Positions 1-39,294 of a stretch of DNA of 39,294 bases are shown here, piece by piece; position 1 is the first letter of the stretch, and the number at the start of each line of letters is the position of its first letter. Below the pieces are notes generated by a model. That model did no database searches. It was not told the origin of the DNA and saw only the letters and a list, made by a program, of their open reading frames with translations. This DNA comes from a virus. The position numbers and the translations under genes are program-made. The DNA lies in UHGV virus genome UHGV-0210057. One strand, 5' to 3'.

Positions 1-12
1 ATTTCCATTTCA

Positions 13-25
13 CGCTCTTTAACAA
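13..25 (+). promoter_or_regulatory. BoxA-like antitermination element in the nutR position (downstream of cro across the window wrap)
   Basis: CGCTCTTTAACAA matches rrn BoxA (TGCTCTTTAACAA) at 12/13 and the lambda nut BoxA core CGCTCTT; no BoxB-like GC hairpin follows before the ATG at 70. Confidence 0.4.
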
Positions 26-69
26 TAAGCAATCAACTTAACAGTCAATTCAAACTAAAGGAGTCAATT

Positions 70-609
70 ATGCAACCACTTACATACCAACAGACTAGCG
101 GATTTAGCCCGACTGCGGTGATAAATCGTTCTCAAATAAAACAGGTGCCAGGCCACGAAAAAATCCGTGATGCCGTTCGCGCCTGGTCGGCTGCAGATAA
201 TCAGGATGTTGTTGCCGCACTCATTGTGAATGAGTATCGGGAGCAGGGCGGCGGCACCATCGATTTCCCTGATGATGTCAGCCGTGCACGCCAGAAGCTG
301 TTCCGCTTCCTCGATAACAAATTCGATTCTGAAAAATACCGAAATAACGTGCGTGAACTGACCCCGGCAATTCTGGCGGTACTACCGCTGGAATATCGCG
401 GCCACCTGGTTGAGCAGGATAGCTTCATGGCTCGGCTGGCTGAAATGGAAAAGGAACTCTGTGAGGCAAAGCAGGCGGTCATTCTCAACGCACCACGCCA
501 CCAGAAACTGAAGGAGATGAGTGAAGGCATTGTGTCGATGTTTCGAGTGGACCCGGATCTGGCTGGTCCATTGATGGCGATGGTCACCACCATGCTGGGG
601 GCAATATGA
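70..609 (+). CDS. Hypothetical early protein in the cII position, possibly YdaT-family
   Basis: 179-aa ORF with AAGGAG RBS 7 nt upstream; sits between cro (window end) and O; family assignment is from memory only. Confidence 0.5.
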   Translation: MQPLTYQQTSGFSPTAVINRSQIKQVPGHEKIRDAVRAWSAADNQDVVAALIVNEYREQGGGTIDFPDDVSRARQKLFRFLDNKFDSEKYRNNVRELTPAILAVLPLEYRGHLVEQDSFMARLAEMEKELCEAKQAVILNAPRHQKLKEMSEGIVSMFRVDPDLAGPLMAMVTTMLGAI

Positions 610-695
610 CAGGTTCAAAAATGGCGAAAGTCGGTCTGCGGGAACAGAACCGACTTTCAGGTGCAAATCGTAACACACTCATTGCGGGAGGAATT

Positions 696-1625
696 ATGGC
701 AAACACTGCTGAGATATTCAATTTTCCAGTGCCGGATGCGGCACAAAAGGAGCGGCGCGTGGCAGATCTCGATGATGGTTATACGCGCATTGCAAATGAG
801 TTGCTGGAAGCTGTGATGCTGGCCGGATTAACACAGCACCAGCTTCTGGTCTTCCTGGCTGTCATGCGCAAAACATATGGCTTTAATAAAAAACTGGATT
901 GGGTGAGCAACGAGCAACTTTCCGAGTTGACCGGGATATTGCCGCACAAGTGTTCTGCTGCAAAAAGTGTTCTGGTAAAGCGTGGGATTTTTATTCAGAG
1001 TGGGCGGAATATCGGCATTAATAATGTGGTCAGTGAATGGTCAACATTACCCGAATCAGGTAAGAAAAATAAAGTTTACCTGAAAGAGGTAAATTTACCT
1101 GAATCAGGTAAGAAAAGTTTACCCAAATCAGGTAAAGGCGTTTACCCGAATCAGGTAAACACAAAAGACAAACTAACAAAAGACAATATAAAACCTTTTT
1201 CGTCCGAGAATTCTGGCGAATCCTCTGACCAGCCAGAAAACGACTTTCCTGTGGAGAAACTGGATGCTGCAATTCAGAGCGGCAGCAAGTGGGGGACAGC
1301 AGAAGACCTGACCGCCGCAGAGTGGATGTTTGACATGGTGAAGACTATCGCGCCATCAGCCAGAAAACCGAATTTTGCAGGGTGGGCTAACGATATCCGC
1401 CTGATGCGTGAACGTGACGGACGTAACCACCGCGACATGTGCGTGCTGTTCCGCTGGGCATGCCAGGACAACTTCTGGTCTGGTAACGTGCTGAGCCCGG
1501 CCAAACTTCGCGATAAGTGGACCCAGCTCGAAATCAACCGTAACAAGCAACAGGCTGGCGTGACAGTCAGCAAACCAAAACTCGACCTGACAAACATTGA
1601 CTGGATTTACGGGGTGGATCTATGA
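696..1625 (+). CDS. O: Lambda O-like replication initiator
   Basis: From MANTAEIFNF the protein aligns with lambda O N-terminus (VADLDDGY..RKTYG..SEW); GGGAGG RBS before ATG at 696; iterons embedded in the linker; stop overlaps P start. Confidence 0.9.
   Translation: MANTAEIFNFPVPDAAQKERRVADLDDGYTRIANELLEAVMLAGLTQHQLLVFLAVMRKTYGFNKKLDWVSNEQLSELTGILPHKCSAAKSVLVKRGIFIQSGRNIGINNVVSEWSTLPESGKKNKVYLKEVNLPESGKKSLPKSGKGVYPNQVNTKDKLTKDNIKPFSSENSGESSDQPENDFPVEKLDAAIQSGSKWGTAEDLTAAEWMFDMVKTIAPSARKPNFAGWANDIRLMRERDGRNHRDMCVLFRWACQDNFWSGNVLSPAKLRDKWTQLEINRNKQQAGVTVSKPKLDLTNIDWIYGVDL
1047..1159. repeat. Origin iterons (ori-lambda-like) inside the O gene
   Basis: Five 17-19 bp repeats of TTTACC(C/T)GAATCAGGTAA(A/G), each an internal palindrome (TTACC..GGTAA), at about 1047-1063, 1075-1093, 1094-1112, 1118-1136, 1141-1159, followed by an AT-rich stretch; they encode the repeated LPESGKK motif. 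Confidence 0.8.
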
Positions 1626-2323
1626 AAAACATCGCCGTACAGATGGTTAACTTTGACCGTGAGCAGATGCGCCGGATCGCCAACAACATGCCGGAACATT
1701 ATGACGAAAAGCCGCAGGTACAGCAGGTAGCGCAGATCATCAACGGTGTGTTCAGCCAGTTGCTGGCAACTTTCCCGGCGAGCCTGGCTAACCGTGACCA
1801 GAACGAACTGAACGAAATTCGCCGCCAGTGGGTTCTGGCTTTCCGGGAAAACGGGATCACCACAATGGAACAGGTTAACGCAGGAATGCGCGTAGCCCGT
1901 CGGCAGAATCGACCATTCCTGCCATCACCCGGGCAGTTTGTCGCCTGGTGCCGGGAAGAAGCATCCGTTAACGCCGGGCTGCCAAACGTCAGCGAGTTGG
2001 TTGATATGGTTTACGAGTATTGCCGGAAGCGTGGCCTGTATCCGGATGCAGAGTCTTATCCGTGGAAATCGAACGCGCATTACTGGTTGGTTACCAACTT
2101 GTACCAGAACATGCGGGCCAATGCGCTGACTGACGCGGAATTACGGCGCAAGGCTGCCGATGAACTGACCTGTATGACAGCGCGAATTAACCGTGGTGAG
2201 ACGATACCTGAACCAGTAAAACAACTTCCTGTTATGGGCGGTAGACCTCTAAATCGTGCACAGGCTCTGGCGAAGATCGCAGAAATCAAAGCTAAGTTTG
2301 GGCTGAAAGGAGCAAGGGTATGA
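1622..2323 (+). CDS. P: Lambda P-like replication protein (DnaB helicase loader)
   Basis: 233 aa, near-identical along its length to lambda P as recalled (MKNIA.QMVNFDREQMRRIANNMPE...); ATGA overlap with O stop. Confidence 0.95.
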   Translation: MKNIAVQMVNFDREQMRRIANNMPEHYDEKPQVQQVAQIINGVFSQLLATFPASLANRDQNELNEIRRQWVLAFRENGITTMEQVNAGMRVARRQNRPFLPSPGQFVAWCREEASVNAGLPNVSELVDMVYEYCRKRGLYPDAESYPWKSNAHYWLVTNLYQNMRANALTDAELRRKAADELTCMTARINRGETIPEPVKQLPVMGGRPLNRAQALAKIAEIKAKFGLKGARV

Positions 2324-2622
2324 CGGGCAAAGAGGCAATTATTCATTACCTGGGGACTCATAAGAACTTCTGTGCGCAGGACGTTGCCGTGGTAACAGGC
2401 GCAACCGTAACCAGCATAAATCAGGCTGCGGCTAAAATGGCACGGGCAGGTCTTCTGGTTATCGAAGGTAAGGTCTGGCGAACGGTGTATTACCGGTTTG
2501 CTACTAGGGAAGAACGGGAAGGAAAGATGAGCACGAACCTGATTTTTAAGGAGTGTCGCCAGAGTGCCGCGATGAAACGGGTATTGAGGGTATATAAAAG
2601 AACATCAATGGGTACACAATGA
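2320..2622 (+). CDS. ren: Ren-like protein
   Basis: 100 aa beginning MTGKEAIIHYLGTH, matching lambda Ren as recalled; directly follows P with overlap. Confidence 0.85.
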   Translation: MTGKEAIIHYLGTHKNFCAQDVAVVTGATVTSINQAAAKMARAGLLVIEGKVWRTVYYRFATREEREGKMSTNLIFKECRQSAAMKRVLRVYKRTSMGTQ

Positions 2623-2689
2623 TGAAACAGATGAGTTGAGTTCAAACTGTAGTACAATTCTCTCCAGTTTGAACAGGAAAGAATATGCT

Positions 2690-3022
2690 ATGAATCCTTA
2701 TATTTATCTTGGTGGTGCAATACTTGCAGAGGTCATTGGTACAACCTTAATGAAGTTTTCAGAAGGTTTTACACGGTTATGGCCATCTGTTGGTACAATT
2801 ATTTGTTATTGTGCATCATTCTGGTTATTAGCTCAGACGCTGGCTTATATTCCTACAGGGATTGCTTATGCTATCTGGTCAGGAGTCGGTATTGTCCTGA
2901 TTAGCTTACTATCATGGGGATTTTTCGGCCAACGGCTGGACCTGCCAGCTATTATAGGCATGATGTTGATTTGTGCCGGTGTGTTGGTTATTAATTTATT
3001 TTCACGAAGCACACCACATTAA
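2690..3022 (+). CDS. emrE: SMR-family multidrug efflux transporter EmrE
   Basis: 110 aa from MNPYIYLGGAILAEVIGTTLMKFSEGF, four predicted TM helices; same position as emrE in the DLP12 prophage; AT-rich relative to neighbours. Confidence 0.85.
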   Translation: MNPYIYLGGAILAEVIGTTLMKFSEGFTRLWPSVGTIICYCASFWLLAQTLAYIPTGIAYAIWSGVGIVLISLLSWGFFGQRLDLPAIIGMMLICAGVLVINLFSRSTPH

Positions 3023-3055
3023 AAATAATTTCTTTTGAATCGAGTGAAATAGGTT

Positions 3056-3082
3056 AGCCCGCATAAGTGCGGGCTGCTTTTT
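3056..3082. terminator. Rho-independent terminator after emrE (bidirectional, shared with the convergent esterase gene)
   Basis: AGCCCGCA-TAAG-TGCGGGCT hairpin followed by GCTTTTT; the T-run overlaps the esterase stop codon. Confidence 0.6.
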
Positions 3083-4124
3083 ACAGGTCAGCGTTTGTTT
3101 TTTGTTGTTGGGTAGCGGTTTTTATGGGGGTTCCCAGTTTTTTAGTAAACCACTCAACAACTCTGTTTATAATAATTGGCTGATACCATGTATTATCGCC
3201 ATGCTCAGCCCCTTCTACCAGAACGTACTCAGCGTTATCGCCGTTCTTCTTCAACATCCTGAATAGTTTGGCGCTTTGCTCAGGTGAAACCAGAGTGTCT
3301 TTGCTACCATGCATAATAAGAAATGGGGGTTTTACTCCTTTCATATGTCCGATTGGACTGGCGTTTAGCGCTTTTTCTTTTGACGCTGTTATGGGGGCTC
3401 CCGCAAAACTTCTGAATGCAGGGCCATTGATCATTAAGGCTTCGGTTACGGCAGGAGATCGATGAACCTCCTGCACAGATTCAGGGAACCCCTCGCCAAT
3501 ATTCAACAAGTCAGAAATCCCATAAAGTGTGGCAACTGCCTGAACATCTGCTGATTGCTGAAGAAAGTCACCTTTATCAAAGGTTTTGTCACCATTTGTA
3601 GTTCCCATCATCTGGGCAAGCCATCCACCGGCAGAGTCACCCAGAACTCCGATTCTTTGAGGATCAATCCCATAATCGCTGGCATGTTCTCTCAAGTAAC
3701 GTATTGCAGCTTTCCCATCCTCAACTGGTGCTGGAAATGTATCAGGAATTGTTCTGTATTCTACAGCGGCCACAACAAAACCAGCTTCAGCCAGAGCCAT
3801 TCTCATTTCAATAAATTTGTCATGTTCAGAAGACATGAATCCGCCGCCGGGATAATAAATAATGGCTGGTTTTAAATCATTTGTTCGTGGGACAAGAACT
3901 GACATGTGAAGCTGTCTGACAGAACGAGTTCCTTTTATCTGGGAATAAACAACATCACCAATGAGATCGACCTGGTTTCTGGTCGGTGAAACACTAATGA
4001 TATCTGCACCCGGGGTGTAACCAGGAAGATTAGTCTGGACAGGTGTTGCACAACTCCCGACCGACATGGCCATTGACATACCATACAATAGTGTTGCAGA
4101 TGATAATATCTTGTTAATTTTCAT
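3081..4124 (-). CDS. Secreted or lipoprotein alpha/beta-hydrolase (esterase/lipase-like)
   Basis: 347 aa; N-terminal signal peptide with possible lipobox (MSMAMSVGSC); GDSAGG nucleophile motif and HGSKD; opposite strand to flanking phage genes with its own terminator (moron organisation). Confidence 0.75.
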   Translation of the reverse strand: MKINKILSSATLLYGMSMAMSVGSCATPVQTNLPGYTPGADIISVSPTRNQVDLIGDVVYSQIKGTRSVRQLHMSVLVPRTNDLKPAIIYYPGGGFMSSEHDKFIEMRMALAEAGFVVAAVEYRTIPDTFPAPVEDGKAAIRYLREHASDYGIDPQRIGVLGDSAGGWLAQMMGTTNGDKTFDKGDFLQQSADVQAVATLYGISDLLNIGEGFPESVQEVHRSPAVTEALMINGPAFRSFAGAPITASKEKALNASPIGHMKGVKPPFLIMHGSKDTLVSPEQSAKLFRMLKKNGDNAEYVLVEGAEHGDNTWYQPIIINRVVEWFTKKLGTPIKTATQQQKTNADL

Positions 4125-4571
4125 GTTTTACATGCCTTGACTTATCGGATGAAATTCTCTTACTGAATTTAACGGCAGTTTAATAGCCGTACAACTCGTG
4201 GTAGCTAGGGAAATATCCCAGTCGTGGTTAAGGTTGTACTTGACGGCTATTATTTCAACAATGCTTAAAGTGAGAGCTTAAGGTTATGCGTATGTTTTAC
4301 AGTCCGAGTAGATTCTGACCAATAGCTTCTTTGTATGATTCTGTCAGAAATAAATCTTGGCTTGCATGAAGTTTGAGACCTTATCTTGTTTGATTATGAA
4401 TAATCAATTCGCCATAATTGTATCACCGGAGCCTGAACAACTTCGGTGACTTCTGCGCTAAACGGGGACGTTTATGCGCACACACAATCCAAACTCTCTT
4501 CTCCCTTCACAGATGCAGAAATGCACCTGCGTTTTTTTGCATCCAGCGTCTGACCTCTGTGGAGGTGAAGC

Positions 4572-5027
4572 GTGAACCTACCACAAGATGGCATCAAACT
4601 GCATCGCGGTAACTTCACCGCTATCGGTCAGCAGATCCAGCCTTATCTGGAGGACGGCAAATGCTTTCGCATGGTGCTTAAACCGTGGCGCGAGAGACGC
4701 AGTCTTTCCCAGAATGCACTTAGCCACATGTGGTACAGCGAAATCAGTGAATACCTCATAAGCAGGGGGAAATCGTTCGCTACTGCAGCATGGGTAAAAG
4801 ATGCTCTCAAACACACATACCTCGGTTATGAAACCAAAGACCTGGTTGATGTCGTAACCGGTGAAATCACCACTATTCAGTCGTTACGCCATACCTCCGA
4901 TCTTGATACCGGAGAGATGTATGTCTTCCTGTGTAAGGTTGAAGCCTGGGCGATGAATATTGGCTGCCACCTGACTATTCCGCCGAGCTGCGAGTTCCAG
5001 CTGCTGCGCGACAAGCAGGAGGCGTAA
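4572..5027 (+). CDS. ybcN: NinB-family recombination protein (YbcN-like)
   Basis: 151 aa, GTG start with GGAGG RBS; [15 protein letters not shown]... and RSLSQN motif match DLP12 YbcN / lambda NinB as recalled. Confidence 0.8.
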
Positions 5028-5197
5028 TGGCTACACCGATTATTCGTGTCATGAACGGGCACATTTACAGAGTACCAAATCGTCGTAAGCGTAAACCTGA
5101 GCTGAAGCCTTCCGAAATACCAACACTGCTCGGATATACCGCCAGCCTGGTTGATAAAAAATGGTTGCGACTGGCAGCAAGGAGGAATCATGGCTGA
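5027..5197 (+). CDS. ninE: NinE-like protein
   Basis: 56-aa ORF (below the ORF-track cutoff) [32 protein letters not shown]..., translated by hand; TAATG overlap with ybcN stop. Confidence 0.7.
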   Translation: MATPIIRVMNGHIYRVPNRRKRKPELKPSEIPTLLGYTASLVDKKWLRLAARRNHG

Positions 5198-5480
5198 TTT
5201 GAGAAAAGCAGCGCGTGGTCGGGAATGCCAGGTAAGAATCCCTGGCGTATGTAATGGCAACCCTGAAACGTCTGTACTGGCACATATCCGGCTGGCTGGA
5301 TTGTGCGGCACCGGTATTAAACCGCCAGACCTTATTGCCACCATTGCCTGTTCTGCCTGTCACGACGAAATCGACCGCCGCACGCATTTTGTCGATGCTG
5401 AGTACGCAAAAGAATGCGCGCTGGAAGGTATGGCGAGAACGCAGGTTATCTGGCTGAAAGAGGGGGTAATCAAGGCGTGA
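5190..5480 (+). CDS. ybcO: YbcO-like (DUF1364) putative nuclease
   Basis: 96 aa from [23 protein letters not shown]... with Cys-rich motif; ATGGCTGA overlap with ninE stop. Confidence 0.75.
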
Positions 5481-5839
5481 ATACTTACCACATCACACTA
5501 CCCTGGCCGCCGAGCAATAACCGCTACTACAGGCATAATCGCGGGCGCACGCACATCAGCGCAGAAGGGCAGGCATACCGTGATAACGTCGCCCGAATCA
5601 TTAAAGGCTCAATGCTGGATATCGGTCTGGCTATGCCTGTGAAAATCCGCATTGAGTGCCACATGCCGGATCGCCGTCGCCGTGACCTGGATAATCTGCA
5701 AAAAGCCGCTTTTGACGCACTCACTAAAGCAGGTTTCTGGCTGGATGATGAGCTGGTCGTTGATTACCGCGTTGTGAAGATGCCTGTTACCAAAGGTGGG
5801 AAGCTGGAACTGACCACTACTGAACTGGGAGATGAATGA
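5477..5839 (+). CDS. rusA: RusA Holliday-junction resolvase
   Basis: 120 aa from a GTG start ([26 protein letters not shown]...), near-identical to E. coli RusA as recalled; GTGA overlap with ybcO stop. Confidence 0.85.
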
Positions 5840-5934
5840 TGTTTGAGTCTTATATGGCAGAACGTCTTCGCCGCCGCTGGGTGCGCCTGCGCTTATATCG
5901 TTTTATTGATTTTTGCTGGCAATTGGCGTGCTAG
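5836..5934 (+). CDS. Small YlcG-like ORF
   Basis: 32-aa [35 protein letters not shown] overlapping the rusA stop, in the DLP12 ylcG position; too short to be certain. Confidence 0.4.
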
Positions 5935-5957
5935 CCTGATTTTTGTGGGGAAAGTTG

Positions 5958-6341
5958 ATGCGTGATATTCAGATGGTTCTTGAGCGTTGGGGGGCATGGG
6001 CGGCTAATAACCACGAGGATGTAACCTGGTCATCCATTGCTGCCGGTTTTAAGGGATTAATTCCTTCAAAAGTAAAGTCTCGCCCACAATGCTGTGATGA
6101 TGACGCGATGATTGTTTGTGGATGTATGGCTCGCCTGAAAAAGAACAATAGCTATTTGCATGATTTACTAGTGGATTATTATGTCGGGGGTATGACATTT
6201 ATGTCACTGGCAAGTAAGCATTGTTGCTCTGATGGTTATATCGGGAAAAAGTTACAGAAGGCTGAGGGAATAATTGAAGGGATGTTAATGGCATTAGATA
6301 TACGGTTAGAGATGGATATCGTTGTTACTAAGTCTAATTAA
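5958..6341 (+). CDS. quuD: Late-gene antiterminator Q (phage 82/21 QuuD-like)
   Basis: 127 aa from [22 protein letters not shown]... with Cys-rich zinc-binding region; located after the nin genes and before the lysis genes. Confidence 0.8.
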
Positions 6342-6366
6342 TACGCTAATTATTTACTAAGTGTTA

Positions 6367-6393
6367 TTAAAAAAGGGGCGTAGAAACGCCCCC
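6367..6393 (-). terminator. Intrinsic terminator for the convergent porin transcript
   Basis: GGGGCG-TAGAAA-CGCCCC hairpin; on the minus strand it is followed by a TTTTTT run. Confidence 0.5.
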
Positions 6394-6482
6394 AAAAATA
6401 AAGGGTAATATATAACAGAAGGTTTATATAGTCAGAAGCAAGGTAGTGCTTCTAAAGGAAGTGGCTTGAGGGAGCCACTTAT

Positions 6483-6520
6483 ATGTTGGGGAGGCAAAGC
6501 CTCCCGCAACATATCTTTTT
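6483..6520 (+). terminator. Intrinsic terminator downstream of Q (tR'-like position)
   Basis: ATGTTGGGGAGGC-AAA-GCCTCCC(G)CAACAT extended hairpin followed by ATCTTTTT, about 140-180 nt after the Q stop, the spacing expected for a PR'-to-tR' leader. Confidence 0.5.
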
Positions 6521-6530
6521 CGTAACCAGA

Positions 6531-7628
6531 TTAGAACTGGTAAACCAGTCCTACGGCAACGATGTCGTCAGTGCTTACACCAAGTGCTTTAGTGAAGTCG
6601 TTTTTGTCAAGCAGGTTGATCTTGTAATCAACGAAAGTAGACATGTTTTTGTTGAAGTAATAAGTTGCACCTACATCAACATATTTGACTAAGTCCTGAT
6701 CGCCCCATACTCCAAGATCCTTACCTTTAGATTGCAGGTAAGCAACGGACGGACGCAGACCGAAATCGAACTGATATTGTGCAACAGCTTCGAAGTTTTG
6801 AGCTTTATTAGCAACGAAGTGATCAGCAAATACAGTCATATTCTGGGTTTCAGAATAGGTAGTGGCCAGGTAAATGTTGTTAGCGTCATATTTCAGACCT
6901 GCGGCCCAAATTTCTGCATTTTTACCGGAAGCAAATACTTCAGGAAGAACTTTGCCTGCATTGACTTGAGTGTCGGTACGATCAGATTTCGCATAAGTCG
7001 CACCAATGCCGAATCCTTCGTATTCATAGGTAGCAGAGAAACCGAATCCATCACCGTTACCTTCGGTGTAGTTATCGAAATCGCTACGATCGTTTTTACC
7101 TTGGTACTGAGCAGCAAAGTTCAGACCATCAACCAGACCAAAGAAGTCGTTGTTACGGTAAGTTGCAACACCAGTTGCACGTTGAGTCATGAACACGTCG
7201 GTTTGAGTCCAAGTATCACCACCGAATTCTGGCAGGACGTCAGTCCACGCACCGATGTCGTATGCTACACCGTAGTTACGACCGTAATCGATGGAACCGT
7301 AGTCACCGAATTTCAGGCCTGCAAATGCAAGACGGGTTTTGTCTTTGGCGGAACCTTGAGATTCAGCGCGGTTGCCTTTGAATTCATATTCCCACTGACC
7401 GAAACCAGTCAGTTGATCGTTGATTTGGGTTTCACCTTTGAAGCCCAGACGAACATAAGTAGTATCACCATCATCTGCATCGTTAGAGGAAAAGTAGTGC
7501 TTGGCATTAACTTTCCCGTACAGATCCAGCTTGTTACTGTCTTTATTATAAATTTCAGCTGCCTGAGCAGACATCGCCATCAGTACTGATGCAGCTACAG
7601 CAGAAATTGCCACTGTTAATTTTTTCAT
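6531..7628 (-). CDS. nmpC: OmpC-family general porin (NmpC/Lc-like), apparently intact
   Basis: 365 aa from [23 protein letters not shown] signal peptide; AEIYNKD..LDLYGK start, porin motifs and C-terminal ...VGLVYQF; same position and orientation as nmpC in DLP12. Confidence 0.9.
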
Positions 7629-7706
7629 CGTGAGCCCTTTTTTTGAACTATTATTAAAAAATGATGTCACTGCGCGATAAATATTCATCTAATCAATATG
7701 ATTATT

Positions 7707-11973: not shown

Positions 11974-11974
11974 T

Positions 11975-12154: not shown

Positions 12155-12179
12155 AATAACGATTAAGTGAGATGAATAT

Positions 12180-12206: not shown

Positions 12207-12217
12207 CGTTGATTAGT

Positions 12218-30893: not shown

Positions 30894-31207
30894 TACCCCT
30901 GTGTTTTTTGTACAATCAAAGATTTTGTGGGCACTAAGAAAATTAGTGTATATAAACCATGCTTAAATTGCATAAATATTGAATATAGCATCGATGGCTC
31001 ACTATCCTTACGTTATCAAAAAAATGTGTATACCGTGATTATGCTTGATAATTATTTGACCGCAGTGTTGTATAGTCTACTGCTTTCTAATCTACAAGCA
31101 TCATGGCATAAATCCAGTATCTAGAACTAATAAGATTAACAATTGGATCACAAGTGATTGGCTTAGTTCACTGAGCCATGCATTGTTACCCTCTGATTAA
31201 AGATTAA

Positions 31208-32401: not shown

Positions 32402-32526
32402 TTTTTACCCGTCATGGAGTGCGGCTGTCAACGATCTGACGCGAACCATTACGAACTGTTAATCTACGGAAGACTTGATATTCAGGGGATTTTACGGACT
32501 GGTACGGATGGGAGCGAACTGATAAA

Positions 32527-32541
32527 TGGTGTCCCCTGCAG
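32527..32541 (-). other. Candidate attP core resembling a tRNA 3' end (argW-like)
   Basis: Minus strand reads CTGCAGGGGACACCA (acceptor-stem 3' strand, discriminator and CCA), matching my recollection of the argW tRNA-Arg(CCU) 3' end; lies in the 213-bp gap between alpA and int. Confidence 0.5.
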
Positions 32542-32614
32542 ACATCTACTTGAAGCAGCAGGGGATTGATTGGAATGGTGTTTTTTAGATGTGAAAAATA
32601 TTTTACCCGCTATT

Positions 32615-32815
32615 TTACCCATTGGCGCGGCTTAAGAGCTTATTTTTGAACTCACAATGGTCACGATATAACCATCTTGCTCGCCCGTGGATAACTTTGG
32701 CTTTAGGCAGGTCGCCGGACTTAATCCGGTCATAGATGAAGGTTTTACCAAAGCCAGTATCAGCCATGATGAATTTCAAATCAACCAGGGAATCAGGCTG
32801 TAGTTCGTGTTGCAT
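32615..32815 (-). CDS. alpA: AlpA-family excisionase / transcriptional regulator
   Basis: 66 aa with HTH motif LKFIMADTGFGKTFIYDRIKSGDLPKAKVIHGRARW typical of AlpA/Xis; immediately upstream of int on the same strand. Confidence 0.8.
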   Translation of the reverse strand: MQHELQPDSLVDLKFIMADTGFGKTFIYDRIKSGDLPKAKVIHGRARWLYRDHCEFKNKLLSRANG

Positions 32816-32833
32816 GAGTGCTATCTCCGAATA

Positions 32834-32849
32834 GGGAATCGAACCTGCA
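32834..32849 (-). other. tRNA T-arm-like fragment (degenerate att-related repeat?)
   Basis: Minus strand reads TTGCAGGTTCGATTCC (T-loop consensus GGTTCGATTCC); the 3' half of the T-stem is not complementary, so it is not a functional tRNA. Confidence 0.35.
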
Positions 32850-32857
32850 AATCAGGC

Positions 32858-32880
32858 AATAAAAAACCGCATTGATGCGG
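32858..32880 (-). terminator. Intrinsic terminator separating the early-left operon from alpA-int
   Basis: CCGCA-TTGA-TGCGG hairpin, followed on the minus strand by TTTTTT. Confidence 0.5.
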
Positions 32881-32937
32881 CGATGGTAGGTCTGGATATC
32901 TTGAGAAATGAACTGGCCTCATCGAGTGTGAGGCGGG

Positions 32938-33282
32938 TTAGTCCTTGCGTAGCTCGCTGATTCTTCTGTAAGTCTCTGGTGCTTTGTTCCCGTACGTCTT
33001 CATTTCAGACTTCAACAGAGCAACGAGGGAATCCCATTCGTTGAGGATGCCTTTGAATGCCGGAACGCGCTTTGCAACCTTGTCGAATGAATCCCTGATT
33101 TCTGGAATCTGCTCGACAAGCGCAACGCATCGCCGGAAGTCTGCTGCGTCATGGGGAGCGCCGAAGTGATGACCATAGATATTCTTTTTCAGTCCACATG
33201 CGATTGAGGCAAGAGTTGCGCTACTGATGCCAACATCGCCAGTCGATTGCCATTTCAAAACCTTCATAGCCAAATCTGACAT
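32938..33282 (-). CDS. Hypothetical protein
   Basis: 114-aa ORF with GGAG RBS; preceded by a terminator hairpin (GCCGCC..GGCGG plus T7); no family recognised. Confidence 0.5.
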   Translation of the reverse strand: MSDLAMKVLKWQSTGDVGISSATLASIACGLKKNIYGHHFGAPHDAADFRRCVALVEQIPEIRDSFDKVAKRVPAFKGILNEWDSLVALLKSEMKTYGNKAPETYRRISELRKD

Positions 33283-33383
33283 TTCTTGTCTCCAATAAAA
33301 AAACCGCCATCAGGCGGCTTGGTGTTCTTTCAGTTCTTCAATTCGAATATTGGTTACATTGTTTTCATATATGAATAAATAAA

Positions 33384-33596
33384 TTAGCTTTTTTCGTTGC
33401 CTTCGCTTTCTTTATTAATTTTAACAAACTCGTTTTTACCACGCTCTCCAAATGCGTCTTTAGAGTCGTTGTATCCGCAATCGCAGCACACATAATCATC
33501 AGACCATCCACGCATTGTTTTTTCTTTTGCAATATTTCCAGAACCGCATTTTGGACAAGACATATCACTACCTCCAAAGCATGAGAAAGATGACAA
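33384..33596 (-). CDS. Small zinc-ribbon protein
   Basis: Two CxxC pairs (CPKCG ... CCDCG); start may be Met1 or Met12. Confidence 0.5.
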   Translation of the reverse strand: MSSFSCFGGSDMSCPKCGSGNIAKEKTMRGWSDDYVCCDCGYNDSKDAFGERGKNEFVKINKESEGNEKS

Positions 33597-33659
33597 CGTA
33601 ACATTGATTGGAGATTAACAATAGATTGCTGATGTAAAAGATATGTATAAGCTTAGCTA

Positions 33660-34307
33660 TCAAAGGGGAGGTTCTGGTAGTTGCATCCAGTCGGTTACAT
33701 TGCGACTCTGTGTTTCGAAAAATTCATCACCATTGCGGACAATATCGAAAAACTCTCCGTCTCGATATTGCGCATAAAGAACGAATGCGCCATCACATAA
33801 AATAATTACGTGCTGACCATCATCTGGCATTAGCTCACTACAGCTTATCCAACCATCCGGAGTTACCGGATAGTTGCCGGGTTCTTTAATGTGCAAACGA
33901 GGCTCACCATCTTTTGGTTCAGGCCACTGGCGCTCCATGTTGATCTTCAATTTATTTTCCATAGCAGCGGTAATTTCAGCATCACTGATACCAGCACGGC
34001 GCTGTGCATCCCACAACAGGAACTGCATATCAGCCCACTCGCTGAGATCGTCAGGTTCGGCTGCGGCTTCCAGAGCCTCTTTTGAGAGGTGTTTCAGTGG
34101 ACCAATGGGGCCAACGCAGCCAAATGTGGAGTCAGACCATTTGGCATGCTCGTGGCGAACCCGCTCGCGTTCCAGTGAGGCGAGAGCGATTTTAAATGCT
34201 GTAAGCATGTGTGCTTGATCGTTGTCGAGTCCGAATGGCATTTCATCTCGTGCTGACTCAATACTGGTAATCGTATTTTGTAGCCATTCCATGGTAAAAG
34301 TGCTCAT
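33660..34307 (-). CDS. DUF550/DUF551-type prophage protein
   Basis: 215 aa; C-terminal DUF551-like motif (DGWISCSELMPDDGQHVIIL.DGAFVLYAQY) as recalled from lambdoid prophage proteins. Confidence 0.6.
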   Translation of the reverse strand: MSTFTMEWLQNTITSIESARDEMPFGLDNDQAHMLTAFKIALASLERERVRHEHAKWSDSTFGCVGPIGPLKHLSKEALEAAAEPDDLSEWADMQFLLWDAQRRAGISDAEITAAMENKLKINMERQWPEPKDGEPRLHIKEPGNYPVTPDGWISCSELMPDDGQHVIILCDGAFVLYAQYRDGEFFDIVRNGDEFFETQSRNVTDWMQLPEPPL

Positions 34308-34675
34308 CGTAAAATATCCTCTATACTGGTAAGCCCTTCATTATTTAGCCAGATCATTGCGTCATCCGGCAACTTGCTGTCTGGTTTTGCGTTTTTGAGA
34401 GAGGAACTCAGTCGCTTAATCCACATTGTCAGCTCAGTAATGCGCCTGTGTTTGCCTTCCAGCTCAACGCGCAGCTTCCCTACCGTTAGTGCAATATCCT
34501 CGTTCTCCTGGTCGCGGCGTTTGACGTATTGCTGGTTTCTTTCCCGTTCATCCAGCAGTGCCAGCACAATCGATGGTGTTACCAGCTCATGGAAAAGGTC
34601 CGCGTCAAATCCCCAGTTGTCATGCATTGCCTGCTCTGCCGCTTCACGCAGTGCCTGAGAGTTAATTTCGCTCAC
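34304..34675 (-). CDS. Ea22/Ead-like early protein
   Basis: 123 aa; N-terminus MSEINSQALREAAEQAMHDNWGFDADLFHELVTPSIV resembles the ead/Ea22-like family as recalled. Confidence 0.6.
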   Translation of the reverse strand: MSEINSQALREAAEQAMHDNWGFDADLFHELVTPSIVLALLDERERNQQYVKRRDQENEDIALTVGKLRVELEGKHRRITELTMWIKRLSSSLKNAKPDSKLPDDAMIWLNNEGLTSIEDILR

Positions 34676-34893
34676 TTCGAACCTCTCTGTTTACTGATAA
34701 GCTCCAGATCCTCCTGGCAACTTGCACAAGTCTGACAACCCTGAACGATCAGGCGTCTTCGTTCATCTATCGGATCGCCACACTCACAACAATGAGTGGC
34801 AGATACAGCCTGGTGGTTCAGACGACGCATTTTTATTGCTGTATTGCGCTGTAATTCTTCAATTTCTGATGCTGAATCAATGAGGTCTGCCAT
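34672..34893 (-). CDS. TraR/DksA-family C4 zinc-finger protein
   Basis: 73 aa with CCECGDPIDERRRLIVQGCQTCASC (C4 zinc finger of TraR/DksA type). Confidence 0.7.
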   Translation of the reverse strand: MADLIDSASEIEELQRNTAIKMRRLNHQAVSATHCCECGDPIDERRRLIVQGCQTCASCQEDLELISKQRGSK

Positions 34894-34991
34894 CTTCCAT
34901 TAATCCCTGAATTGTTGGTTAATACGCTTGAGGGTGAATGCGAATAATAAAAAAGGAGCCTGTAGCTCCCTGATGATTTTGCTTTTCATGT

Positions 34992-35273
34992 TCACCGTTC
35001 CTTAAAGACGCCGTTTAACATACCGATTGCCAGACTTAAGTGAGTCGGTGTGAATCCCATCAGCGTTACCGTTTCGCGGTGCTTCTTCAGTACGCTACGG
35101 CAAATGTCATCGACGTTTTTATCCGGAAACTGCTGTCTGGCATTTTTGATTTCAGAATTAGCCTGACGGGCAATGCTGCGAAGGGCGTTTTCTTGCTGAG
35201 GTGTCATTGAACAAGTTCCATGTCGGCAAGCATAAGCACACAGAATATGAAGCCCGCTGCCAGAAAAATGCAT
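34992..35273 (-). CDS. Hypothetical early protein
   Basis: ORF in the lambda orf61 region; the true start may be Met23 (35207). Confidence 0.4.
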   Translation of the reverse strand: MHFSGSGLHILCAYACRHGTCSMTPQQENALRSIARQANSEIKNARQQFPDKNVDDICRSVLKKHRETVTLMGFTPTHLSLAIGMLNGVFKER

Positions 35274-35283
35274 TCAGTGGTTG

Positions 35284-35475
35284 TCATACCTGGTCTCTCT
35301 CATCTGCTTCTGCTTTCGCCACCATCATTTCCAGCTTTTGTGAAAGGGATGTGGCTAACGTATGAAATTCTTCGTCTGTTTCTACTGGTATTGGCACAAA
35401 CCTGACTCCAATTTGAGCAAGGCTATGTGCCATCTCAATACTCGTTCTTAACTTAACAGGAGATGCTTTGTGCAT
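35284..35475 (-). CDS. Lambda orf63-like small protein
   Basis: 63 aa [23 protein letters not shown]...; size and position next to exo match lambda orf63 as recalled. Confidence 0.5.
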   Translation of the reverse strand: MHKASPVKLRTSIEMAHSLAQIGVRFVPIPVETDEEFHTLATSLSQKLEMMVAKAEADERDQV

Positions 35476-35636
35476 ATCGCCTCCCGTTTATTATTTATCT
35501 CCTCAGCCAGCCGCTGTGCTTTCAGTGGATTTCTGATAACAGAAAGGCCGGGAAATAACCAGCCTCGCTTTGTAATGGAGTAGACGAAAGTGATCGCGCC
35601 TACCCGGATATTATCGTGGGGATGCTTCATCGCCAT
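35448..35636 (-). CDS. Lambda orf60a-like small protein
   Basis: 62-aa ORF immediately downstream of exo on the same strand. Confidence 0.45.
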
Positions 35637-36307
35637 TGCTCCCCAAATACAAAACCAATTTCAGCCAGTGCCTCGTCCATTTTTTCGATGAACTCCGGCA
35701 CCATCTCGTCAAAACTCGCAATGTACTTTTCATCCCGCTCAACCACGACATAATGCAGTCCTTCACGCTTCATACGCGGGTCATAGTTGGCAAAGTACCA
35801 GGCATCTTTTCGTGTCACCCACATGCTGTACTGCACCTGGGCCATGTAAGCCGATTTTATGGCCTCGAAACCACCGAGCCGGAACTTCATGAAATCCCGG
35901 GAGGTAAACGGGCATTTCAGTTCAAGGCCGTTGCCGTCACTGCATAAACCATCGGGAGAGCAGGCGGTGCGCATACTTTCGTCGCGATAGATGATCGGGG
36001 ATTCAGTAACATTCACGCCGGAAGTAAACTCAAACAGGGCTCTGGCGTCATTCTCGTACTGTTTTCCCCAGGCCAGCGCCTTAGCGTTAACTTCCGGAGC
36101 CACACCGGTGCAAATCTCAGCCAGCAGGGTGTGAAAGTAGGACATTTTCATGTCAGGCCACTTTTTTCCGGAGCGGGGTTTTGCTATCACATTGTGAACT
36201 TCTGAAGCCGTAATGACGCCGAGTCGTAATTTGTTCCACGCATCATCTCCCTGTTCGACAGCTCTCACGTCGATCCCGGTACGCTGCAGGATAATGTCCG
36301 GTGTCAT
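35627..36307 (-). CDS. exo: Lambda exonuclease (Red-alpha)
   Basis: 226 aa, near-identical to lambda Exo as recalled ([63 protein letters not shown]). Confidence 0.95.
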
Positions 36308-37089
36308 GCAGCCACCTTCTGCTCAGAGGCTTTCTGTTTCAGGAATCCAAGAGCTTTCACTGCTTCGGCCTGTGTCAGTTCTGACGATGCGCGAATGTCG
36401 CGGCGAAATATCTGGGAACAGAGCGGCAATAAGTCGTCATCCCATGTTTTATCCAGGGCAATCAGCAGAGTGTTAATCTCCTGCATGGTTTCATCGTTAA
36501 CCGGAGTGATGTCGCGTTCCGGCTGACGTTCTGCAGTGTATGCGGTATTTTCGACAATGCGCTCGGCTTCATCCTTGTCATAGATACCAGCAAATCCGAA
36601 GGCCAGACGGGCACACTGAATCATGGCTTTATGACGTAACATCCGTTTGGGATGCGACTGCCACGGTCCCGTGATTTCTCTGCCTTCGCGGGTTTTGAAT
36701 GGTTCGCGGCGACATTCATCCATCCACTCGGTAACGCAGATCGGATGATTGCGGTCCTTGCGGTAAATCCGGCATGTACAGGATTCATTGTCCTGCTCAA
36801 AGTCCATGCCATCAAACTGCTGGTTTTCATTGATGATGCGGGACCAGCCATCAACGCCCACCACCGGAACGATGCCGTTCTGCTTATCAGGAAAGGCGTA
36901 AATTTCTTTCGTCCACGGATTAAGGCCGTACTGGTTGGCGACGATCAGCAATGCGATGAACTGCGCATCGCTGGCATCGCCTTTAAATGCCGTCTGGCGA
37001 AGAGTGGTGATCAGTTCCTGTGGGTCGACAGAATCCATGCCGACACGTTCAGCCAGCTTCCCTGCCAGCGTTGCGAGTGCTGTACTCAT
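36304..37089 (-). CDS. bet: Lambda Bet (Red-beta) single-strand annealing protein
   Basis: 261 aa, near-identical to lambda Bet as recalled ([59 protein letters not shown]). Confidence 0.95.
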
Positions 37090-37094
37090 TCGTT

Positions 37095-37391
37095 TTATAC
37101 CTCTGAATCAATATCAACCTGGTGGTGAGCAATGGTTTCAACCATGTACCGGATGTGTTCTGCCATGCGCTCCTGAAACTCAACATCGTCATCAAACGCA
37201 CGGGTAATGGCTTTTTTGCTGGCCCCGTGGCGTTGCAAATGATCGATGCATAGCGATTCAAACAGATGCTGGGGCAGGCCTTTTTCCATGTCGTCTGCCA
37301 GTTCTGCCTCTTTCTCTTCACGGGCGATCTGCTGGTAGTGACGCGCCCAGCTCTGAGCCTCAAGACGATCCTGAATGTAATAAGCGTTCAT
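37095..37391 (-). CDS. gam: Gam RecBCD inhibitor
   Basis: 98 aa, near-identical to the short form of lambda Gam as recalled ([59 protein letters not shown]). Confidence 0.95.
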
Positions 37392-37467
37392 GGCTGAACT
37401 CCTGAAAATGGCTGTGAAAATAGCGCCCGCGAAATGCCAGGCTGATTAGGAAAACAGGAAAGGGGGG

Positions 37468-37674
37468 TTAGTGATTCAGGCCTTTACCGCGTCCGTCGAG
37501 AAAAACTTCCACGAGCAAATCACGGGTATAAGTGCGCTCGATGCCGCGATGCAGATAAAGCCGTCCGCGTAAATTAGCTGATGCAGTCCAGGTACCATCT
37601 TTGTGTTTGACCAGCATTCCTGGCATGACCGCGCCGCGATTAACGGTCTGCGTTCCGTAATGTTGATGAACCAT
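37468..37674 (-). CDS. kil: Kil-like protein (Rac KilR-like FtsZ inhibitor)
   Basis: 68 aa from MVHQHYGTQ...; strong CAGGAG RBS 5-6 nt before this ATG; pattern (H.YGT......V.PG..V.H..G...ASAN..GR.LY.......T.D.LVEVFL.GRG) resembles KilR as recalled; the in-frame upstream extension to 37758 has only a weak RBS. Confidence 0.6.
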   Translation of the reverse strand: MVHQHYGTQTVNRGAVMPGMLVKHKDGTWTASANLRGRLYLHRGIERTYTRDLLVEVFLDGRGKGLNH

Positions 37675-37945
37675 AAAAACTCCTGCCCGTAAGCTGGGCT
37701 GCTGAACATATAGAGACTTCTGCGCGTATTCAGGCGGTGGATGGCCGCCGGTTGCCATAACTAAGCCGCCTCGTTGAAGCGACTAAGGTATGAAATGTTG
37801 AGTTGATTTCAGCTGGTCACACCGACGTTCACGCGTCCGTTTCACCCCTCGCACTCCCCGAAGCCTGCTGAAATTCAAACTGCGGATCTAAGCGGTCATC
37901 GCAACGGTGAATCAGGTGGTTGCCGTATCGTTGTGTTGTTGCGAT
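37675..37945 (-). promoter_or_regulatory. Long (about 270 nt) untranslated, potentially structured PL leader; no N gene
   Basis: No RBS-associated ORF between PL and kil; 9-bp perfect inverted repeat CATCGCAAC/GTTGCGATG (plus coordinates 37897-37905 and 37938-37946) and an 8-bp inverted repeat (37806-37813 / 37867-37874) enclosing GC-rich sub-stems. Confidence 0.4.
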
Positions 37946-37951
37946 GAACTT

Positions 37952-38030
37952 ATTTAAAACTATAGTTGTTTTATCGTCAACAACAAAAGTTGTTTTATTG
38001 GTTGTTTTAGATATAACTGGTTGTATTTAG
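37952..38030 (-). promoter_or_regulatory. PL promoter with OL operators
   Basis: On the minus strand TTGACG-17 bp-TTAAAT, parallel to PR (TTGACT-17 bp-TAATCT); repeated GTTGTT/AACAAC operator half-sites. Confidence 0.5.
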
Positions 38031-38120
38031 GATGGATTTATTTTGTGACTTGAATCGCATAGCGATAACTGAAGCGAGGTTATGGTGGTTTTTTTAACGG
38101 TGTGTGTGATGAGGGGAGGG

Positions 38121-38148
38121 CAAAAGAAAACCCGGCACGGTGACCGGG
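38121..38148 (-). terminator. Intrinsic terminator downstream of cI
   Basis: CCCGG-CACGGTGA-CCGGG hairpin followed on the minus strand by TTTTCTTTT. Confidence 0.5.
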
Positions 38149-38269
38149 ATTCTTACGCCGTTAGGTAAAGATATTATTGCGGTGGCTTAATATTACTACC
38201 TAGAGCAAAGATAGGAATTAGTTCTTTACTGAATGAGCACAATGCCCAGTTGATAATTTTTAATTGGTA

Positions 38270-38959
38270 CTACCCATGCTTCCTATATGTCTGCGGCATG
38301 CTCCCAATAACCTTACCGAAGATGAACACCCGGTTCATCTCGTCTTTCTCGATCGGGTCCCACGGTGAGTAGCTTTTGTTATCAGAGATGACCAGCAGCT
38401 TATCCTTCATCATTTGCAGGCGCTTTACATGGGCTGTGTCGTCGTACAGAAACGCATAGATACCATCACCGTCGAAAGATTTAACTGTGATATCAACGAA
38501 CAGCAGATCACCTGGTTCGATCGTTCCTGACATGCTGTCACCACGCACGTTAATGATGCGGATATTTTCCGCCTTCCTACCATCGAACATGTGACGAGCA
38601 TCGTCAAACGAGTACTCAACCGAGCGTAGAACTTCTACAAACTCACGGTTGATGACTCCCGGCCCAGCACTGACTTCTATATCAAGAACGTCAATCTTAA
38701 AGTATTTGGAATGGCTGACAGTTGATAGTATTGGTTGCACTGTACTGTCTGACATATTTCCAACGCCAGAAGATAACCATTCTGCGCGCACACCCAAAGC
38801 GTTCGCGATCTCCACGATTTTAGTTGTTTGGTTAGCTTTCCCTGTTTCGATTTTCTGAATAGCAGCTTGGCTAACCCCGACCAAATCCCCAAGCGCCTTT
38901 TGTGTAAGGCCTCGCGCTAATCTGGCTTCTTTAAGTCTTTCTGAGAGTGTTGTTTTCAT
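38270..38959 (-). CDS. cI: CI-type prophage repressor (HTH-XRE plus S24 LexA-like peptidase domain)
   Basis: 229 aa from MKTTLSERLKEARLARGLTQKALGDLVGVSQAAIQKIETGK (HTH); C-terminal S24 autocleavage motifs (VRGDSM ... GD.L.VD ... K.L); divergent from cro. Confidence 0.85.
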   Translation of the reverse strand: MKTTLSERLKEARLARGLTQKALGDLVGVSQAAIQKIETGKANQTTKIVEIANALGVRAEWLSSGVGNMSDSTVQPILSTVSHSKYFKIDVLDIEVSAGPGVINREFVEVLRSVEYSFDDARHMFDGRKAENIRIINVRGDSMSGTIEPGDLLFVDITVKSFDGDGIYAFLYDDTAHVKRLQMMKDKLLVISDNKSYSPWDPIEKDEMNRVFIFGKVIGSMPQTYRKHG

Positions 38960-39000
38960 AGTCCAAATGTACAACCAAGGTTTTATTCCATCAAACGAAA

Positions 39001-39036
39001 ATGGTTGTTGACTAAAAACAACCATAGTTTTAATCT
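39001..39036 (+). promoter_or_regulatory. OR operator palindrome overlapping the PR promoter
   Basis: Perfect 9-7-9 palindrome ATGGTTGTT-GACTAAA-AACAACCAT at 39001-39025; -35 TTGACT (39008-39013), 17-bp spacer, -10 TAATCT (39031-39036); GGAGG RBS before the cro ATG at 39064. Confidence 0.6.
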
Positions 39037-39063
39037 TGATTCAAATTAACCACGGAGGTTGTT

Positions 39064-39294
39064 ATGAACCCAGCTATCAAAACAGCGATCAATATCGTTG
39101 GTTCACAAAAGAAACTGGGCGCTGCCTGCGAAGTTTCACAGCAGGCCGTCTATAAGTGGCTTCACAACAAAGCAAAGGTATCCCCTGAACATGTCGGCAG
39201 CATTGTTACGGCTACTGGTGGAGTAGTGAAGGCATACCAGATTCGCCCGGATCTTCCGAAGTTGTTTCCACACACCGAAAAGAACGCAGCTTAA
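39064..39294 (+). CDS. cro: Cro-like repressor (Cro/YdaS-type HTH)
   Basis: 76 aa; HTH motif GSQKKLGAACEVSQQAVYKWL; divergent from cI across the operator; the window ends at its stop codon. Confidence 0.8.
   Translation: MNPAIKTAINIVGSQKKLGAACEVSQQAVYKWLHNKAKVSPEHVGSIVTATGGVVKAYQIRPDLPKLFPHTEKNAA

Follow-up and report, generated by a model that had tools for sequence, protein, structure and literature searches.

The question raised by UHGV virus genome UHGV-0210057, a DNA of 39,294 bp that was read whole (hereafter the window), is whether it constitutes a complete phage genome with a circular map, and from which relatives its modules derive. A preliminary description had proposed a complete, circular, mosaic temperate phage whose immunity and replication region is split across the two ends. 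This proposal was borne out by an identical contig with a 29-nucleotide (nt) overlap of its ends, and by an integrase gene, phage attachment site (attP) and excisionase gene that lie in the unintegrated configuration. We conclude with high confidence that the window contains the complete circular map of an Escherichia coli phage, a temperate P22-like podovirus of the Sf6 type, in a single unit that was cut arbitrarily after the cro equivalent.

Closure of the circular map

The window begins and ends within the immunity region, as had been described. The open reading frame (ORF) of the Cro equivalent (39064-39294, plus strand) stops at the TAA that forms the last three bases of the window, and its product of 76 amino acids (aa) belongs to the YdaS family (Pfam YdaS, with a weak P22_Cro match). 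At the other end, an intergenic segment in the position of nutR (1-69, plus strand) carries the exact BoxA consensus CGCTCTTTAACAA at 13-25 and is contiguous with position 39294 in genomes and in Logan contigs. It is followed by a gene in the cII position for a 179-aa YdaT-family protein (70-609, plus strand; Pfam YdaT_toxin, E 2.6e-29), and then by O (606-1625) and P (1622-2323). In a subset of lambdoid prophages, YdaS and YdaT are recognised as taking over the functions of Cro and CII (PMC9986795), and because YdaT is a known equivalent of CII, the earlier wording "cII-position gene" was apt.

Because the window itself has no terminal repeat, its closure rests on external sequence. An exact-protein look-up with the tailspike retrieved Logan contig SRR8653234_1379 (39,323 bp), which encodes the identical tailspike protein and was fully rebuilt from four overlapping loci without conflict. 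Its ends carry a direct terminal repeat of 29 nt. After removal of the repeat, the contig measures 39,294 bp, contains each position once per unit, and is 100% identical to the window after a rotation of 7,716 nt; the assembled circle, followed once round, therefore gives exactly the window. The suggested search for terminal redundancy accordingly gave a negative result within the window and a positive one on the identical contig. The join of position 39294 to position 1 sits in the interior of this contig at 100% identity. It is likewise contained in SRR8653235_60 from the neighbouring run, which spans the window from 33842 through 39294 and 1 to 20219 at 100% identity. Circular closure was thus demonstrated directly.

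The same join is widespread. A query of 673 nt, composed of the final 341 nt and the initial 332 nt of the window, was covered to at least 80% in 1,506 of 5,426 complete E. coli genomes, and two E. coli records matched it at 100% identity without gaps. Five phage records (PhiR34_1, PhiR5_1, IdasGreatGrand, PhiR47_2, and PhiR26_1) contained it contiguously at 97% identity or more. The join closes with no base lost or doubled, and no ORF of at least 40 aa was found to run across it. The end of the window at the stop codon of the cro equivalent is a product of how the circle was cut and not of biology; in SRR8653234_1379, the same circle was cut at window position 7717, the second base of an insertion sequence (IS), with an overlap of 29 nt rather than 30 nt. 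Virion DNA from headful packaging and an excised prophage in replication would both yield a circular assembly.

The attachment module and integration at argW

Integrase, excisionase and attP are internal to the window, as the preliminary description had noted. The integrase gene (31208-32365, minus strand) encodes a tyrosine recombinase of the IntS type (385 aa; Pfam Arm-DNA-bind_3, E 2.3e-25, Phage_int_M, and Phage_integrase). It shares 98.7% aa identity with IntS of E. coli K-12 and 98.2% with Sf6 Int, and 19-20% with the integrases of P22 and lambda. Its domains follow the order Arm-DNA-bind_3 (DUF4102), central SAM-like domain, and tyrosine recombinase catalytic domain, so that it can be called P4-type by domain architecture alone. 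The architecture behind that earlier label was confirmed; the idea of a separate fourth source of the mosaic was not, as IntS and TorI are shared by Sf6, HK620, and KplE1. The excisionase gene (32615-32815, minus strand) encodes a TorI-type protein, 100% identical at the aa level to TorI of K-12 and HkaC of HK620. TorI acts as a recombination directionality factor (PMC3509656).

The attP core, ATGGTGTCCCCTGCAG, was located at 32526-32541, with arms extending over roughly 32366-32614. This position is directly supported by a three-way alignment of attP, attL, and attR: when the window was aligned with both prophage junctions of strain 18KM2445, the sequences switched around TGGTGTCCCCTGCAG, which together with the preceding A corresponds to window 32526-32541. 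The core is identical to the 3' end of argW and is the reverse complement of the published 16-nt core of KplE1 at the argW 3' end, CTGCAGGGGACACCAT (PMC2951348). The records of HK620 and Sf6 annotate attP between int and the torI homologue, as in the window. In integrated relatives, the gene order is host dsd/csc, torI, early genes, virion genes, tailspike, acyltransferase, intS, argW, and yfdC; since these relatives carry intS and torI at opposite ends, attP is placed between the two genes.

An integrated copy of the same phage was found at argW in GCA_044249515.1, as the check proposed earlier had anticipated, and it is split at the attP core. One contig runs from host emrY/dsdA/csc through the core into window 32527 to 39294 and on from 1 to 4689 (2 mismatches in 11,457 nt), and this torI-side contig also crosses the join between the cro equivalent and ydaT. 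A second contig contains window 17319-32541, followed by argW, yfdC, mlaA, and fadL (1 mismatch in 15,223 nt). Together, the two arms show 3 mismatches in 26.7 kb (99.98% identity), and the genome encodes the identical tailspike protein. The prophages of 18KM2445 and Rb-50 have their host junctions at the same core. With an IntS/TorI pair, the 16-nt core, and flanked integrated copies, the window carries the argW module of KplE1, HK620, and Sf6. Public data hence contain this phage both in its excised or circular state and integrated at argW.

An integrated prophage from which the host flanks had been trimmed was considered and rejected: int, attP, and xis are contiguous, and the ends of the window join each other. 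The absence of host housekeeping genes, remarked upon earlier, was also confirmed, as no tRNA, rRNA, Rfam family, or core host gene was found in the window.

Similar P22-like genomes have been deposited as circular "plasmids" in E. coli assemblies, NZ_CP081786.1 (39,448 bp) being an example, which could speak for an extrachromosomal phage-plasmid that is kept as an episome instead of by integration. No partition or plasmid-replication genes were found in Pfam scans of the window, whereas the IntS/TorI/attP module is complete and the same phage occurs integrated at argW. A phage-plasmid is extremely improbable in this light and was rejected for the lack of plasmid maintenance genes and the existence of an integrated copy. 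As an observation in its own right, the "plasmid" NZ_CP081786.1 in a complete E. coli assembly is a whole circular genome of a P22-like phage, and NZ_CP172337.1, also plasmid-labelled in a complete E. coli assembly, is the 44,831-bp genome of a contractile-tailed phage that carries Avs2. These labelled circles represent the same assembly phenomenon as the window.

In three complete E. coli chromosomes (e.g., NZ_CM135826.1, 2301942-2304044), intS, attP, and torI were found contiguous, that is, in the unintegrated arrangement. This could be explained by prophages in tandem at argW or by a different route of integration.

The insertion sequence, the early region, and points against the reading

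The IS at which the contig breaks is a 1,095-bp element of the IS481 family (7716-8810, minus strand; Pfam rve/HTH, NCBIfam transpos_IS481). It is flanked by a 6-bp target duplication, AGATGT, at 7710-7715 and 8811-8816, with its bounds set by alignment to DLP12 and Rb-50. Copies that are 100% identical are common elsewhere in E. coli genomes. No second case of an insertion at this site was encountered: an exact 36-mer over the IS junction had no match in IMG/VR and JGI metagenomes, and a query over the right junction (window 8450-9250) was not covered to at least 80% in any of the 5,426 complete E. coli genomes.

The early regulatory region lies around the cut. A repressor of the CI type, with helix-turn-helix and S24 peptidase domains (Pfam HTH_3, Peptidase_S24), is encoded at 38270-38959 (minus strand); read from the RefSeq-type start it has 229 aa, which is also the length of its RefSeq homologues. 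A terminator scan placed a terminator after cI at 38131-38148. Between the repressor gene and the cro equivalent, the OR/PR/PRM region (38960-39063) contains a 25-bp palindromic operator (39001-39025) that overlaps the -35 hexamer of PR. The OL/PL region (37960-38150, minus strand) has repeated AACAAC/GTTGTT operator half-sites and a TTGACG-17-TTAAAT promoter. The BoxA at 13-25 is rrn-like and the sole exact copy in the window, in which 0.9 chance matches are expected at two or fewer mismatches; no boxB-like hairpin was found after it.

Several points weigh against the reading of the window as a complete circular map of a viable phage. The window carries no end-to-end repeat, and its first and last 300 nt do not share a single 8-mer. 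Closure is known at the level of assembled contigs. SRR8653234_1379 breaks at the left edge of the IS, where its 29-nt repeat is situated (IS bases 2-30), which hints at a graph branch or a repeat-induced feature in the SRR8653234 assembly. With regard to viability, the IS is located between the porin and holin genes, in the leader of the Q-dependent late operon. Furthermore, no N gene was detected, as neither Pfam, PHROGs, and NCBIfam nor the ORF list of the window provided a family match.

The position of the break bears on the possibility of a false circle, in which a chromosomal segment (the phage between two copies of the IS481-family element, or a tandem array) was closed by the assembler via a repeat. 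The contig starts at the second IS base, its repeat is IS sequence, the chance of a random break within ~30 nt of an IS edge is roughly 0.15%, and the element has many fully identical copies in E. coli. However, the same contig reads through the right IS edge, and SRR8653235_60 reads through both edges. The AGATGT duplication and the uninterrupted DLP12/Rb-50 sequence around the IS indicate a simple insertion, int-attP-torI is intact in the window, and both arms of the independently assembled argW copy end at the core, as expected of a 39.3-kb circularising unit. We therefore regard a false circle as very unlikely.

A different possibility is that the map is complete and the element defective or poorly inducible, so that it is excised or carried and forms no plaques, because the late leader contains the IS or because N-type antitermination is missing. 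The IS481-family element indeed lies between Q/porin and the holin gene, and besides N, a nutL BoxA downstream of PL was not detected in a BoxA search of the window. On the other hand, every ORF for structure, lysis, replication, or recombination has its full length and is 97-100% identical to its counterpart in functional phages, and Sf6 and HK022 are viable although their genomes contain IS elements. Isolated phages, PhiR34_1 and Turner among them, also have the N-less YdaS/YdaT early region, and two sequencing runs gave an assembly of the attP form, implying that the DNA had been excised or came from virions. A defective element is unlikely, albeit a more serious candidate than the false circle, and the window is best read as a complete and probably viable phage.

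How such an early region would deal with transcription termination can be addressed in part. Of N/nut early antitermination, the window has a BoxA at the nutR position only. To our knowledge, N is not universal among lambdoid phages, as HK022 lacks it. A structured PL leader, such as an HK022-like put RNA, was tried and rejected, because the minus strand of 37765-37960 folds no better than shuffled sequence (z = -0.09) in a test of folding only, in which HK022 was not aligned. The leader also contains an arginine-rich ORF of 31 aa (37783-37878, minus strand) that matches no family. This type of early region was covered to at least 80% in about 1,500 of the 5,426 complete E. coli genomes. Since N and nutL are lacking and a perfect BoxA occurs without boxB, the early module might use antitermination independent of N and put, or none.

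Hybrid make-up, gene content, and predicted life cycle

The sources of the modules were assessed by nucleotide alignment of the window to lambda, DLP12, Sf6, HK620, CPS-53/KplE1, P22, and the prophages of 18KM2445 and Rb-50. Lambda aligned at window 1159-2595 (94.4% nt identity; 3' part of O, P, and ren) and 34457-37474 (96.7%; ea22 through gam). DLP12 matched at 2012-3051, 4389-7715, and 8811-10274 (90-98%), Sf6 at 13197-23759 (97.1%) and 31216-32881 (96.8%), and CPS-53/KplE1 at 31210-32934 (95-96%). For P22, only patches were found. The content and identities of the modules were in this way observed directly, and they modify the four-way mosaic proposed earlier. Its lambda early genes were confirmed for P/ren and exo-bet-gam (94-97% nt identity), and not for cI, cro, and the cII-position gene: the cI and cro products are both ~22% identical to those of lambda (21.9% for CI), the Cro and CII equivalents are YdaS and YdaT, and N is absent. 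The DLP12/phage-21 block was recovered, with emrE, nin, Q, porin, and lysis genes at 90-98% nt identity and a holin of the phage-21 type. Concerning the P22/Sf6 virion module, the Sf6 type (97% nt identity) held, while P22 sequence did not, the large terminase subunit (TerL), portal, and coat being only 17-32% identical in aa to those of P22.

Two argW prophages describe the window more sharply. The Rb-50 prophage (NZ_AP025682.1), a lambda-like siphovirus, matches window 32525 through 39294 and 1 to 10289 at 96.6-98.7% nt identity, broken only by the IS and one 0.5-kb patch. It shares torI through the lysis genes, the att core, and the argW site. Beyond this stretch, the place of the window's Sf6-type podovirus genes is taken in Rb-50 by lambda-type genes for the Nu1/A terminase, the head, and a long tail, and Rb-50 has no IS. 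PhiR34_1 and Turner group with Rb-50 as relatives of the early region. The P22-like prophage of 18KM2445 (NZ_CP151004.1) matches window 11652-26204 and 27305-32541 at 97-98% nt identity and shares the small terminase subunit (TerS), tailspike, acyltransferase, intS, and attL junction with argW. Its early, immunity, and replication genes, in contrast, are P22/HK620-like, with a CII-family protein, DnaB-type helicase, Erf, Abc2, and a lambda-type holin. Jointly, prophages of the Rb-50 and 18KM2445 types cover 34,852 of 39,294 nt (89%). The transitions between the two are located in the Rz region and in the int/att/torI module common to both. By sequence comparison, the window thus looks like a two-parent hybrid of lambda-like siphovirus and P22-like podovirus prophages of argW.

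The shared module suggests a possible route for the exchange of whole morphotype modules, namely two prophages that reside together, or in tandem, at a single att site. A joint reading would be that the hybrid arose recently by co-residence or tandem integration at argW and that its YdaS/YdaT early module achieves antitermination differently from lambda N or HK022 put (for example with BoxA and host Nus factors alone) or dispenses with it; we consider this combination speculative and rather improbable. Within the parts searched in each collection (window 1-25000, 24000-39294, or 25000-39294), no INPHARED record and none of the 5,426 complete E. coli genomes covered 80% or more. The combination of modules is absent as a whole from the searched records, yet it is of a thoroughly familiar kind.

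Among characterized phages, Sf6 and HK620 (Lederbergvirus, P22-like, integrating at argW) have the same gene order around the circle. Their genomes, both annotated as circular, measure 39,043 bp and 38,297 bp, respectively. The virion module of the window is 97.1% identical in nt to that of Sf6 and 97.5% to that of HK620; the IntS/TorI/attP module is shared at 96-97% (TorI at 100% aa), and all three genomes place a serotype-conversion gene, a putative one in the window, between tailspike and int. Nevertheless, only ~35% of the window aligns (13.7 kb to Sf6 and 14.3 kb to HK620, at 96-97%). The early, immunity, replication, nin, Q, and lysis half differs throughout, and the tailspike is 28-31% identical in aa overall, with a different receptor-binding part. 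Unlike Sf6 and HK620, the window has another type of acyltransferase, an IS481-family element, no tRNA genes, and another TerS family. In the practice of the International Committee on Taxonomy of Viruses, about 70% whole-genome nt similarity delimits a genus and 95% a species.

The remaining relatives share single blocks. DLP12 corresponds at 90-98% nt identity in emrE, ybcN-ninE-ybcO-rusA-ylcG-quuD, nmpC, and essD-rrrD-rzpD, and KplE1 at 95-96% in intS and torI, with the same 16-nt core; both are defective remnants, unlike the window. The immunity region, N, Q, lysis and virion genes, and int of lambda are all absent from the window. P22 resembles it in overall architecture and in patches (eaG, orf80, and gp10), while its integrase is only 19% identical and its att site is different. 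The order of functions from int/xis to the virion genes is the lambdoid order when compared with lambda, and the P22-like virion genes occur as a set in canonical order, colinear with Sf6 and HK620. No module expected of a temperate phage of the P22-like kind is missing, and the ORFs have full length relative to their homologues.

In the early-left operon (32938-37758, minus strand; Pfam, PHROGs, NCBIfam), ea-type genes, a dATP/dGTP pyrophosphohydrolase-DUF551 gene, an Ea22-like gene, a TraR-like gene, and homologues of orf61, orf63, and orf60a were identified. The operon further includes exo (35627-36307), bet (36304-37089), gam (37095-37391), and a gene for a KilR-type division inhibitor (37468-37758; NCBIfam FtsZ inhibitor), all on the minus strand. 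On the right, all on the plus strand, O (Pfam Phage_rep_O) is 60.8% identical in aa to lambda O overall and harbours three 22-nt iterons of the origin at 1047-1163; P (Pfam Phage_lambda_P) is 96.6% identical to its lambda counterpart, and ren follows at 2320-2622 (PHROG Ren).

Downstream, emrE (2690-3022, plus strand; Pfam) lies in a region with 95.6% nt identity to DLP12. A gene for an alpha/beta hydrolase of the BD-FAE family (3081-4124, minus strand; Pfam) occupies the place of DLP12 ybcK-ybcL-ybcM between emrE and ybcN; it is also found in the Rb-50 prophage and in several phages of the "Lambda_4C10" type. The nin region of the DLP12 type, with ybcN, ninE, ybcO, rusA, ylcG, and Q (4572-6341, plus strand; Pfam), shares 90.8-93.9% nt identity with DLP12 of K-12. 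The Q late antiterminator (5958-6341, plus strand) is 93.7% identical in aa to QuuD and 11% to lambda Q. An nmpC-like gene for an outer-membrane porin follows at 6531-7628 (minus strand; Pfam Porin_1, E 2.5e-156; 97.2% nt identity to DLP12 nmpC), and the same porin protein occurs in many lambda-like prophages. DLP12 of K-12 carries emrE and nmpC as well. The genes for EmrE, porin, hydrolase, and the acyltransferase described below are prophage cargo.

The lysis cassette on the plus strand comprises a phage-21-type holin (9317-9532; Pfam Phage_holin_2_1; 100% aa identity to DLP12 EssD), a lysozyme (9532-10029; Pfam Phage_lysozyme; 99.4% aa identity to DLP12 RrrD), Rz (10026-10463; Pfam Phage_lysis), and an Rz1 lipoprotein with a visible lipobox, embedded in Rz in the +1 frame (10222-10410). 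An accessory block between lysis and packaging genes (10665-12714; Pfam, PHROGs) contains genes for a KilA-N/ORF11CD3 protein (10665-11435) and a DUF2560 protein (11731-11973), a 59-aa ORF, and, just upstream of the small terminase gene, two small minus-strand genes of the DUF6953 (12218-12457) and YodC/DUF2158 (12502-12714) families. The latter pair is kept at the pre-terminase position in many P22-like prophages. Among the ORFs of the window without assigned function, PADLOC detected no defence system apart from one weak, partial PDC-S22 stretch.

The terminase genes (12741-14677, plus strand; Pfam) encode a small subunit of 175 aa (Terminase_2 family) and a large subunit of 470 aa. TerL belongs to the PBSX family of large subunits (NCBIfam) and is 100% identical in aa to Sf6 gp2, while TerS is only 23% identical to its Sf6 and HK620 counterparts and is common among other prophages. 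An unannotated stretch of P22 (40745-40990, upstream of orf80) is 74% identical to window 12742-12991, the 5' part of the TerS gene, and may be what is left in P22 of another TerS gene. The virion genes of the Sf6 type (14680-26360, plus strand; Pfam, PHROG DNA transfer protein) encode portal, scaffold, and coat proteins, gp4-, gp10-, gp26-like (with the Sf6 needle knob), and gp14-like proteins, and the ejection proteins gp7, gp20, and gp16. Pfam matches were P22_portal, P22_CoatProtein, P22_Tail-4, Phage_stabilise, Phage_tail_NK, P22_gp7, and Inj_translocase. Portal and coat share 99.3% and 98.8% aa identity with Sf6.

Two minus-strand genes precede the tailspike gene. The first, at the position of P22 sieA (26375-26896), matches a PHROG without assigned function; the second, at the position of P22 mnt (26931-27230), encodes a repressor of the Mnt/Arc type (Pfam Arc and Repressor_Mnt). 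The tailspike (27319-29655, plus strand; 778 aa; Pfam Head_binding) is encoded with 98.1% nt identity in the 18KM2445 prophage. Its residues 1-125 form a P22-type head-binding domain, to which the PDB matches are confined; for the receptor-binding part of ~650 residues, no solved relative was found by sequence in the PDB. At the position of Sf6 oac, a membrane acyltransferase is encoded (29715-30893, minus strand; Pfam Acyl_transf_3) with a low GC content of 32-36%. It is likely an O-antigen acetylase or modification gene for lysogenic conversion, acquired from a source of lower GC content.

From this gene content, a life cycle can be proposed. The prophage resides at argW with intS at one end and torI at the other, and lysogeny would be held by the S24-type CI repressor at OL and OR, with the YdaS- and YdaT-type proteins filling the roles of Cro and CII. 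Upon induction, IntS with TorI, the predicted drivers of both integration and excision (PMC2951348, PMC3509656), would release the circle, and O and P of the lambda type would replicate it from the iterons inside O. The DLP12-type Q protein would then turn on a late operon that includes the porin gene, the IS, the phage-21-type lysis cassette, and the packaging and virion genes of the Sf6 type. Packaging is predicted to be headful, since the phage has the same TerL sequence as Sf6 (gp2) and terminases of the P22-like type use the headful mechanism; for Sf6 itself, headful packaging was reportedly described by Casjens and colleagues in 2004. P22-like terminases yield DNA with 2-10% terminal redundancy and circular permutation (PMC10345575), and virion DNA of this kind would assemble as a circle. 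The tailspike presumably sets the O-antigen receptor, which the acyltransferase would then modify.

The practical value of the window is modest: it provides a verified complete genome of an Sf6-type coliphage with an exact attP and integration site, and its tailspike and acyltransferase pair may serve studies of O-antigen receptors and seroconversion. It also calls for caution with respect to method, as the coincidence of the window end with a gene end arises from the cutting of a circle. The phage is ordinary of its type, and its features leave the current understanding unchallenged. For the lambdoid phages, it represents a clean example of module exchange, in which an early, late-regulatory, and lysis half of the lambda/DLP12 type is joined to a virion half of the Sf6 type.

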